From the IMG/VR virus record IMGVR_UViG_3300045988_173304: 45,105 nt of DNA; one strand, written 5' to 3'. Made by a program: the position numbers and the translations under genes. The first letter of the stretch is position 1. Each line of letters starts with the position of its first letter. Under the pieces are notes generated by a model. It was not told the origin of the DNA. It worked only from the letters and a program-made list of their open reading frames with translations, and searched no databases. The stretch comes from a virus. Positions 27,606 to 28,060 of the stretch are shown here, piece by piece.

Positions 27606-27673
27606 AGTGCATTCTCCTTTGTTGTCCAAGTCAAGATAATATAATAACTCTATATTACTATTATATCTACGCC

Positions 27674-27750
27674 ATAATTTTTCACCGTTAAAAAAACTTA
27701 ACGTATAAGCTTATATAAAATGAGCATTTTAAGTTGAATTGTTGAATTGG
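27674..27750 (-). repeat. 77-bp structured repeat, copy B (exact reverse complement of nt 1-77)
   Basis: Exact reverse-complement identity checked base by base. Lies 68 nt upstream of the integrase ATG. Confidence 0.95.
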
Positions 27751-28060
27751 AAGTCAAAAAACCATTGATATTGCGCACTTTTTTGCAAGTCAAGATCATT
27801 CAAATAATGTTGAATTGGTTGAATTTATCTTGAATTTTGATTTGTAATAAAATTGTCATAATCACCCCTCAAATTCTTCTAAATTTGTCTGCAAGTTTCT
27901 ATAATACTCTACGTAATATACAAAGTACATACGTTCTATTTTCGCTATTGATTAGAGACAACTATCTTACTATAATGAATTTACCGTCTCGGTAAGAAAA
28001 CTGAAGTATTTGTTAAAAATGAACTGTTATTCTAATATAACTTTGTGAGCTTTGCCATAT

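Follow-up and report, generated by a model that had tools for sequence, protein, structure and literature searches.

The window analysed here, a 45,105-nt stretch of viral DNA, contains two copies of a ~235-bp control region, one directly upstream of the gene for a lambda-type tyrosine integrase (Int, gene int) and one directly upstream of the gene for a sigma-like late regulator, which share a central inverted repeat of 77 identical base pairs. A shared protein-binding control module is the best-supported reading of this arrangement, while co-regulation of the two genes is our proposal. As a whole explanation, to which we assign a probability of roughly 55%, the repeat would be the recently homogenised centre of two paralogous control regions serving as a binding platform for one phage protein, with no genome flip involved.

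The repeat and the genes beside it

Comparison across the whole window established that positions 1-77 are the exact reverse complement of 27674-27750, which agrees with the inverted copy reported upstream of the integrase gene in the preliminary description, and that they are also identical to 45029-45105. Because of this terminal identity, the genome is a circle of 45,028 bp, written in the window with a 77-bp overlap at its ends; four contigs (L001, L032, L037 and L038) run from 44.9 kb through the core into the late regulator without duplication at the join. In 45 kb, chance cannot account for a repeated 77-mer. The core copies and the genes that matter for their interpretation are as follows.

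1-77, + strand: core copy on the late-regulator side, the same in every strain-level relative that spans it
27674-27750, - strand: core copy on the integrase side, read through by L002/L003, L030 and L046
45029-45105, + strand: terminal duplicate of 1-77, a circular-assembly overlap and no third copy
149-535, + strand: sigma-70 region-4-like late regulator of 128 aa that opens the late block
26589-27605, - strand: tyrosine integrase of lambda type, 338 aa, three domains (Pfam Phage_integrase 2.5e-21; phrog_1 4e-58)
28336-28545, + strand: excisionase-like helix-turn-helix (HTH) protein, 69 aa (Pfam HTH_17 4e-5 and TIGR01764 'excise' 5e-4, both below cut-offs), a candidate second binder of the phased direct repeats

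Recomputation reproduced the spacings given earlier, 71 nt between core and ATG 149 and 68 nt between core and ATG 27605, with equal polarity towards both genes, as well as the lengths of the two arcs cut by the core copies, 27,596 and 17,278 bp. The 77-bp identity ends abruptly on both sides, the first outside bases being mismatches; gapless extension yields 98 nt at 91%, and weaker homology around the core reaches ~235 bp in total. The degraded homology described on both flanks is likewise present, with TATCTTGAMTTGG occurring at 112-124 and at 27626-27638 (- strand), and with the distal block 44934-45028 alignable to 27751-27840 (- strand). The duplication of a ~230-bp region upstream of int and the late regulator, also claimed earlier, holds as well, and comparative data widen it to the whole phage family.

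The integrase presents the catalytic residues R202, K226, H287, R290, H313 and Y323, invariant in a 24-sequence alignment of homologues, and its AF2 model (pLDDT 85) gives a full-length alignment of 351 columns with lambda Int (1z1b). Its N-terminal region is modelled as strands 8-12, 21-29 and 35-43 followed by helix 46-57 (pLDDT about 70-83), and for this domain Pfam returned only Arm-DNA-bind_4 at E=0.014, below cut-off. The late regulator matches phrog_36 (transcriptional regulator, 1.8e-10) and TIGR02937 (sigma70-ECF, 2e-6, below its cut-off), is named a specialised sigma subunit by JGI, and is followed downstream by holin, endolysin and terminase genes. The excisionase-like protein is conserved both within the family and in relatives further away, and several small HTH proteins are encoded in the window.

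Ordered site arrays that evolve in concert

In each ~235-bp module, AAKTCARS 8-mers form an ordered array with an AT-rich, promoter-like stretch in its middle. At the distal end, three direct 8-mers stand one helical turn apart, about -231, -220 and -211 from the start codon, followed by an inverted 8-mer near -189, two tandem 8-mers near -143 and -135, and a last inverted 8-mer near -30. The spacing within the distal triplet is 11 and 9 bp in the integrase module (27829, 27818, 27809) and 10 bp in the relative L052. In the core at 1-77, the tandem pair occupies 3-10 and 11-18, and three small palindromes, AAAATG-CT-CATTTT, TATAAGCTTATA and CGTTAA-N6-TTAACG, lie in the AT-rich promoter-like stretch. 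The AATTCAAS form of the 8-mer occurs 26 times in the window against 9.95 expected, a number reached by 0 of 100 shuffles, and 14 of these occurrences fall inside the two modules, the terminal duplicate included. The parts of the modules outside the core are the following.

44934-45028, + strand: distal part of the late module, with direct 8-mers at 44944, ~44955 (degenerate) and 44965 and an inverted 8-mer at 44986; after the 8-mers come TTGCAAAAA and then a copy-specific spacer with GGGACCGC
78-148, + strand: proximal part of the late module, AT-rich, with an inverted 8-mer in TATCTTGAATTGG (112-124) and the ribosome-binding site GAGGTGA
27751-27840, - strand: distal part of the integrase module, with direct 8-mers at 27829, 27818 and 27809 and an inverted 8-mer at 27787; after the 8-mers come TTGCAAAAAA and then a copy-specific spacer (GTGCGCAATATCAATGG, A-tract to T-tract)
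27606-27673, - strand: proximal part of the integrase module, TATAAT-like and AT-rich, with an inverted 8-mer in TATCTTGACTTGG (27626-27638) and the ribosome-binding site AAGGAG

The same layout is found upstream of int in relatives whose Int is 63-99% identical, and upstream of the late regulator, and, measured from the start codon, the sites keep their positions to about 10-20 nt across the family for both genes.

Window, integrase module: -231, -220, -211, -189, -143, -135, -30
Window, late module: -233, -212, -191, -146, -138, -34
L052: -230, -220, -210, -188, -145, -135, -36, -22
P0078: -250, -239, -197, -151, -143, -37, -29

Because polarity and distance to two different start codons are fixed in this way, the modules point to a function in the expression of these genes. 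Contig 081693 agrees with this, the stretch common to its two copies extending through the ribosome-binding site of both genes.

Comparison within and between genomes demonstrates that the two modules are paralogous and that they evolve in concert within genomes. In divergent genomes, the int and late copies of one genome are each other's best match (77 between the window's own copies vs 42 and 30 to late orthologues; 48 between own copies in P0027/P0153 vs at most 24 to other late copies; 34 vs at most 24 in ERR15157069). In c163159 and c176188, the copies have diverged into recognisable orthologous int-type and late-type forms, and c176188 has lost int while retaining both arrays. Since the copies are diverged in these two genomes, the 77 bp are best regarded as a lineage-specific gene-conversion tract; where the preliminary description had left the choice between selection and gene conversion, the latter is thus favoured, the 77 bp having been homogenised in the lineage of the window. 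The flanks of the core carry too few strain polymorphisms for a test of purifying selection on the 77 bp.

Several other identities for the repeat could be set aside. An Rfam search gave no match in the core and a tRNA scan found no genes, so that the core is neither a known RNA nor a tRNA-type att core. A conserved 5'-leader RNA structure was rejected, the CGTTAA-N6-TTAACG hairpin not being kept in relatives, as was a mobile element or MITE, the core being found in this phage alone. The 8-mers are not the early-switch operators, because none lies in the early promoter/switch region, and an operator for a cI-like repressor was rejected on the same absence and because the cI-like gene is missing from the window and from most array-bearing relatives.

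More distant Int relatives (45-50%) have analogous int-upstream arrays with a different motif; when a late-side array was sought in a distant relative, L007, by its CTGTTAC motif, L007 was not among the matches listed. Neither the module nor 25 kb of the window matched any GenBank phage at the DNA level. The phage is of a gut type and its family is uncultured, Clostridia being candidate hosts; the tail protein of one relative has a dockerin domain; the closest cultured Int relatives, Butyrivibrio phages at 42% identity, are too distant to inform.

A proposed shared control module and its alternatives

In the favoured explanation, one phage DNA-binding protein would occupy both arrays and set the transcription of int and of the late regulator. 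We infer the binding platform itself, the identity of its binder, the promoters within the modules and the direction of regulation. By analogy with the systems discussed below, the likeliest binder is probably the integrase, through its predicted lambda-type arm-binding N-terminal domain, and/or the excisionase-like HTH protein. The logic would follow that of self-regulated int promoters overlapping att, as in KplE1, and of directionality factors acting at a switch promoter, as in 186 Apl. The arrays would swap sequence by gene conversion, and exactly 77 bp, mostly int-type, would have been copied as one tract in the lineage of the window, leaving a perfect inverted repeat.

Self-repressed int promoters that overlap att are reported to be widespread, and in the KplE1 type repression is exerted by Int together with the directionality factor TorI (PMC2951348). 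The int module resembles that type in that a putative array of recombination-protein sites lies directly upstream of a tyrosine int gene and covers its putative promoter, in the predicted arm-binding domain of the integrase, and in the small excisionase-like protein encoded nearby. It differs in that its att function is putative, with no attL or attR seen, and in that the array is duplicated before a sigma-like late regulator, the copies evolving in concert. Recombination-directionality factors bind direct repeats one helical turn apart, and 186 Apl does so as a single protein at two places, att and a regulatory promoter (PMC7498355). The distal triplets of the window, spaced 9-11 bp, are alike, whereas here it is the late-regulator gene and not the early lysis-lysogeny switch that has the second site, the modules are long (~235 bp), paralogous and of equal layout, beyond mere repeat clusters, and the proposed binders are candidates. 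P2 Cox is likewise a dual-purpose directionality factor, and the same likeness and differences apply to it. In Tn4430, the gene of the tyrosine recombinase TnpI lies behind IRS, a ~100-bp site of direct and inverted motif copies that also bears its promoter, much as int lies behind its module; IRS copies recombine as direct repeats on cointegrates, whereas the second copy here is inverted, in the same genome and before another gene.

Several observations weigh against the favoured explanation. A consensus promoter/terminator scan detected no sigma-70 promoter in the core or the proximal flank, although the same scan found strong early promoters at 27948-27976 and 28060-28088; by eye, a weak promoter candidate can be made out as (T/G)TCAAC, 17 nt, and then TATAAG, TATATA or GATAAT, its -35 matching TTGACA at 3/6. 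The Arm-DNA-bind_4 match (E=0.014) and the excisionase-like matches fall below cut-offs. The excisionase-like protein fits poorly as the specificity determinant, being 63-66% identical in L022 and L023 despite their quite different motif. If Int is the binder, either the arrays of c176188, which has lost int, are unregulated or the deletion there is recent. No attP was located, core-type sites or an overlap region not being assignable in the int module, which leaves analogy as the basis for linking the arrays to recombination proteins. Finally, co-regulation of int with a late activator follows no obvious logic, and we know of no precedent for it.

A dedicated transcription factor offers a possible but clearly less probable explanation, in which the arrays would be operators for a regulator unrelated to recombination, either a CII-like activator over a weak -35 or a joint repressor. 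The tandem pair does overlap the putative -35 of the weak promoter, an overlap that resembles CII-dependent promoters such as lambda pI, and this reading would also be compatible with the several small HTH proteins encoded and with the retention of both arrays in c176188 without int. In lambda, CII uses direct repeats over a weak -35 to act both at pI (int) and at paQ, which lies antisense in the gene for the late regulator Q, so that int and a late-regulator gene stand under one factor, as proposed here. The Q-side promoter of lambda is, however, antisense and inhibitory, whereas both modules of the window are sense-facing; the 8-mers form part of a much larger array, and no CII homologue was identified. 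The missing cI-like gene and the absence of the 8-mers from the early switch region also count against a dedicated factor, no candidate is tied to the motif, and phased triplets with distant inverted partners fit recombination nucleoprotein complexes better.

A bolder form of the Int-based explanation can be put forward tentatively, as a speculation with a modest chance of being right: an attP-like Int-binding array may have been duplicated before the late sigma-like gene, Int and the excisionase-like protein may gate late expression, and recurrent exchange may keep the arrays matched, the homogenised centre thereby becoming a potential substrate for inversion of 60% of the genome by Int. We know of no phage for which a coupling of int to a late sigma factor through paralogous intasome-like arrays, or a latent genome flip of this kind, has been reported. 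If one assembly controls int and the sigma-like late regulator, integration or excision would be linked to the onset of virion production, a link previously undescribed, and the modules, if the explanation is true, would provide a clean natural case of two cis-regulatory regions kept alike by gene conversion.

It is doubtful that the int module is simply an attachment site overlapping the int promoter, with the late copy a tolerated relic and no shared regulation. The ~235-bp size, the arm-like repeats in both orientations and a lambda-type Int with a predicted arm-type N-domain would all fit an attP, and att sites overlapping int promoters are reported to be common (PMC2951348). No second repeat array lies near int, whose 3' side has a terminator hairpin alone, and the stretch from the -189 site to the tandem pair is a copy-specific spacer, with core-like A-tract and T-tract flanks in the int copies. 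A relic would decay, however, whereas the late copy is kept in position, polarity and geometry family-wide and co-evolves with the int copy. The only relatives found in an integrated state, whose Int is 51-55% identical, have the host DNA on the downstream side of int and not upstream, and the relatives with a cI-like gene share with them the order cI, module, int. Searches for attL, attR and attB of the family found none: no contig above 48.4 kb carried any of the ~80 Int clusters or any of the 120 best-scoring late-regulator homologues listed, a genome scan with Int returned relatives at 50% identity or less only, and exact-protein look-ups gave no host-flanked contig.

Genome arrangement and assembly of the repeat

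No flipping of the genome by the repeat was detected among the contigs and loci inspected. The preliminary description had considered integrase-driven inversion of the 27.6-kb arc. In the form weighed here, the copies would act as inverted sites for the adjacent tyrosine integrase, or as substrates for a homologous flip-flop, and the arc would turn against the 17.3-kb early arc, rewiring early-to-late transcription or changing the mode of replication as in yeast 2-micron FLP. We consider this very unlikely. In its favour, a perfect inverted repeat adjoins an active-looking lambda-type recombinase, int being 68 nt from one copy; three small palindromes lie inside the core; the repeat was left unresolved in some SPAdes runs; and no family member was seen integrated in a host contig. 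The window also shares with yeast 2-micron FLP/FRT and with invertible phage segments an inverted repeat that splits a circle into two arcs, with a recombinase gene beside one copy. The phage invertases Mu Gin and P1 Cin, unlike the integrase here, are of the serine type, and the segments they act on are short.

Nevertheless, all junction-spanning contigs inspected, comprising ~10 contigs at strain level, five full but diverged genomes and over 20 loci of the family, have the arrangement of the window, and no inverted isomer was seen among these assembled contigs and loci. A single orientation in ~10 independent strain-level contigs would be very unlikely if isomers flipped freely. At every related locus int is divergent from the early operon, and at none of them is the late regulator found there. 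Unlike in the FLP system and the invertible segments, the two copies are not preserved as identical partners in relatives, the longest run shared by int and late copies being 18 nt in c163159 and 12-13 nt in ERR15157069 and in the P0027/P0153 type, and c176188 keeps both copies without int. Each copy also stands at a fixed distance from a start codon, which a pure recombination site does not need. Unresolved and resolved assemblies are near-identical in coverage, which points to assembler behaviour.

That a k=77 de Bruijn assembler created the 77-bp identity or the join of the arcs deserves next to no credence: the repeat length equals a common SPAdes k and both this contig and its siblings begin or break exactly there, but assemblies from other studies and assemblers cross both copies into unique flanks with the same boundaries, Logan k=31 breaks in several samples return those boundaries too, and the flanks are too diverged for bubble collapsing. 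Specifically, IMGVR_UViG_3300045988_164467 (~97% identical) starts elsewhere than at the repeat and has both copies with the same boundaries and flanks, five more ENA/GenBank contigs run through one or other copy, and the independent assemblies at 94-99% identity leave the 77-bp boundaries and flanks unchanged. The Logan contigs break exactly 30 nt inside each core end, from which the same boundary positions follow.

The assembly caveat raised earlier was right in one part, the start of the contig being a branch point in the graph. Its SPAdes and Logan siblings are broken right at the repeat, a SPAdes sibling of exactly 27,596 bp, present in two samples, corresponds to arc 1 alone, and contig 081693 (26,168 bp) has a 55-nt inverted terminal repeat at its ends. 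The other part of the caveat, that the relative orientation of the arcs might be unresolved, did not stand, since independent assemblies agree with the window. The repeat explains the starts and breaks of de Bruijn contigs at this place. Short perfect inverted repeats of this sort fix where assemblers start or break phage contigs, and half-genome contigs with inverted terminal repeats, such as these two, could pass for complete linear genomes. A viral scan with a degenerate core pattern returned nothing beyond three known relatives, and a metagenome scan with a 34-mer from the core returned one further contig, in the parental arrangement. In the core-variant strains L042 and L045, the break position is unchanged.

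A repeat shared by the integrase and late-regulator regions

The 77-bp core recurs upstream of the integrase gene (int) and of the gene for a small late regulator, in the following setting.

1-77: late-side core
27674-27750, minus strand: int-side core
45029-45105: identical to 1-77
112-124 and 27626-27638 (minus strand): TATCTTGAMTTGG, gene-proximal weaker homology
44934-45028, aligned with 27751-27840 (minus strand): distal block, weaker homology
149-535: late regulator, small, sigma-70 region-4-like
26589-27605, minus strand: tyrosine integrase (Pfam and PHROG)
~28.15 kb: early operon begins, its first genes cro-like and excisionase-like (HTH protein, 69 aa)

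The inverted repeat reported in the preliminary description is real, 27674-27750 being the exact reverse complement of 1-77, and so is the degraded homology it noted on both sides, represented by the TATCTTGAMTTGG pair and the distal block. Identity drops sharply at each end of the 77-mer, and the alignment, extended without gaps, covers 98 nt at 91%. From the core it is 71 nt to the ATG at 149 and 68 nt to that at 27605, both with good ribosome-binding sites. Since 45029-45105 repeats 1-77, the window is a circular 45,028-bp genome with a 77-bp overlap, which probably matches the repeat in length because the assembler wrote out the circle as a path that leaves the repeat node and returns to it.

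An assembly artefact is ruled out by independent contigs with the same boundaries and arrangement. The IMG/VR contig UViG_3300045988_164467 (44,475 bp, 97% identical to the window) does not start at the repeat and holds both copies, with 77-bp boundaries, flanks and arrangement as in the window, and further contigs, of several studies, continue through one of the two copies (ERZ1690101 NODE_187, ERZ1690163 NODE_312, ERZ28645314 scaffold_22, ERZ28657882 scaffold_1264 and ULVF01074235). The earlier caveat that the contig begins at a graph branch point was borne out, as sibling contigs break at the repeat: at 27,596 bp exactly, ERZ1690238 NODE_337 is arc 1 alone (the segment between the cores with the late, structural and accessory genes and int), its first base being the one directly after the core; Logan k=31 contigs from many samples end 30 nt inside either core end; and the IMG/VR contig 081693 (26,168 bp) is a relative's arc 1 between 55-nt inverted terminal repeats. 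The attached worry about the orientation of the two arcs is answered by independent assemblies, which corroborate that of the window. The repeat is more than a one-contig curiosity.

Module architecture and concerted evolution

Among ~80 clusters of Int homologues (63-99% identity), which define the family, the ~235 bp upstream of int, here called the module, present the same layout in every cluster examined.

Layout of the int-upstream module, in order
Element 1: AAKTCARS 8-mer in three direct copies, spaced by about a helical turn
Element 2: inverted 8-mer, then TTGCAAAAA
Element 3: variable spacer
Element 4: tandem 8-mer pair
Element 5: AT-rich stretch
Element 6: inverted 8-mer ~30 nt before the ATG

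Positions of sites relative to the start codon
Window, int copy: -231, -220, -211, -189, -143, -135, -30
Window, late copy: -233, -212, -191, -146, -138, -34
Relative L052: -230, -220, -210, -188, -145, -135, -36, -22
Relative P0078: -250, -239, -197, -151, -143, -37, -29

In the window, AATTCAAS occurs 26 times against 9.95 expected, with 14 of these matches inside the two modules, and the 8-mers are absent from the early promoter region. The region upstream of the late regulator has the layout of the int module in the IMG/VR relatives 163159 and 176188; that of the more diverged P0153-type relatives and of ERR15157069 has the central segment and 8-mers in common, with the start codon farther away. 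The two copies of 081693 are identical through the ribosome-binding site. Int relatives at 45-50% identity carry analogous int-upstream arrays of a different motif.

In 163159 and 176188, the two copies have diverged (longest shared run, 18 nt) into recognisable int-type and late-type sequences, with a copy-specific spacer that reads GCGCAATATCAAT on the int side and GGGACCGC on the late side. The window lineage retains type-specific flanks around the identical 77 bp, themselves mostly int-type (CAAC, CTTATACG, TTTTTAACG) with a late-type patch, GGTGAAA. Among genomes at greater divergence, each copy finds its best match in its partner within the genome, not in its orthologue. Additionally, two strains have a variant within the final 30 nt of the core and their Logan contigs break where the others do, implying that the variant is present in both copies. 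Comparison of the copies indicates that the paralogous modules undergo recurrent gene conversion, and the perfect 77 bp is a single recent tract rather than an element kept since long ago. Of the "selection or gene conversion" first proposed, conversion is favoured.

A cI-like HTH_19 gene (114-118 aa) lies on the same strand just upstream of the int module in relatives with the Int variants P0020 (81%) and P0078 (63%) (L126 9421-9777; L128 9408-9752; corresponding window interval, 27840-28150). No such gene occurs there in the window, 164467, 163159, 176188, L052 or the int-flank segments of three other relatives, and the window lineage may be without a classical repressor at this position.

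A proposed shared control module and its candidate binders

The catalytic residues of the integrase are invariant in 24 homologues, and its AlphaFold model (pLDDT 85), with an N-terminal three-strand-plus-helix domain at residues 8-57, aligns full-length with lambda integrase (1z1b) and Tn1549 Int; the Pfam arm-domain match is weak (E=0.014). In a fold search, the model also matched the SPbeta/phi3T master repressors MrpR, YopR and SroF, which have a tyrosine-recombinase fold yet act as transcription regulators, so that control of phage gene expression by integrase-like proteins has a precedent. The late regulator is followed by holin, endolysin, small terminase, HNH and large terminase genes. 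Both the cro-like and excisionase-like calls are below cut-offs.

The shared operator/promoter envisaged in the preliminary description is the best-supported reading: that polarity and distance to both start codons are fixed, and that one relative has the leader in common between the two genes, speaks for a function in gene expression, but no consensus promoter is detectable at the module. The helical phasing of the triplets, and the conserved spacing to their distant inverted partners, favour a DNA complex of several proteins. Recombination proteins are candidate binders because integrases of the lambda type require arm sites, no repeat array other than the module lies near int, and an excisionase-like protein is encoded at the early operon start. 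We therefore favour, by inference, a shared binding platform for Int and/or the excisionase-like protein, which would set the expression of int and the late regulator. Int promoters overlapping att regions and repressed by Int and a directionality factor are reported to be widespread (PMC2951348), and this KplE1-type theme is a fitting precedent for the int-side module. Likewise, 186 Apl binds helically phased direct repeats at att and at the switch promoter (PMC7498355), a precedent of one protein at two loci that fits the module pair, which is thus a variation on known att/promoter-overlap and dual-site regulator themes.

Inversion of the arc between the two cores, the other reading first offered, is unsupported. 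All strain-level junction-spanning contigs have the window's arrangement, and five diverged full genomes carry int and the late regulator on opposite strands, 15-19 kb apart, with the early genes between. Of 73 loci retrieved by way of the early helicase, 26 encode a detectable Int relative, which in each case stands upstream of the early operon and divergent from it; in none of the 73 does the late regulator take that position. The int context is the same for three further Int variants, over 26 contigs. No inverted isomer occurs among these junction-spanning contigs and related loci, all of them assembled sequence, in which flipping at low frequency could go unseen. In 176188 (L050, 43 kb), three quarters of int are lost (at L050 4920-5301; the lost segment matches window 26870-27626, most of int and its ribosome-binding site), with both modules kept and the genome otherwise intact. 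What remains, in a family of uncultured phages, is a conserved, concertedly evolving pair of control modules that connects int with a sigma-like late regulator.

Integration, host and accessory features

The attP site was not located. Integrated relatives were found only at Int identity <=55%, and host DNA lies downstream of int there, which weakens the int-side module as attP. The ~80 Int clusters (>=63% identity) and the 120 top-ranking late-regulator homologues listed all lie on contigs of at most 48.4 kb. An integrated prophage was therefore not observed among them, and these phages may exist chiefly as free or extrachromosomal DNA. Accessory regions hold toxin-antitoxin genes (ParE-like at 22278-22514; PemK in relatives). 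A dockerin domain in a tail-region protein of the relative L259 (16837-18084; Int 73%) may point to a host among cellulosome-bearing Clostridia, for instance Ruminococcus.

In distant phages (helicase 56-59% identical), many contigs begin or end ~390-500 nt upstream of the helicase gene (L073, L075, L076, L078, L082, L084, L085, L088, L103-L107), perhaps because these genomes have a common end there, or because one more repeat breaks their assemblies. The early operon closes with a nucleotide-metabolism cluster (39606-44913: thymidylate-synthase-like, GIY-YIG, dUTPase/dCTP-deaminase-like, a 546-aa carbamoyltransferase at 42863-44503, and dCMP deaminase), which may serve modification of phage DNA bases; some relatives have an RNA-ligase-domain gene inserted in it. 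A second repeat family, unrelated to the 8-mers, consists of the palindrome TACAACnnnTGTTGTA fused to a TATAAT box in both orientations (638-662, 22532-22570, 22613-22637, 23809-23847, 23938-23962, 24910-24948, 26275-26314 and 30749-30773). The early region has copies, as do the stretch that follows the late regulator and the sites preceding genes of the accessory region. The make-up suggests a set of operator-promoters under a further regulator, possibly the 76-aa XRE protein (23281-23511). Collagen-like Gly-X-Y repeats (10056-10127) occur in a structural ORF, and three 33-nt tandem repeats (ATNAQTQIAAS-like, 21624-21722) in a tail-fibre-like ORF (21098-22096).
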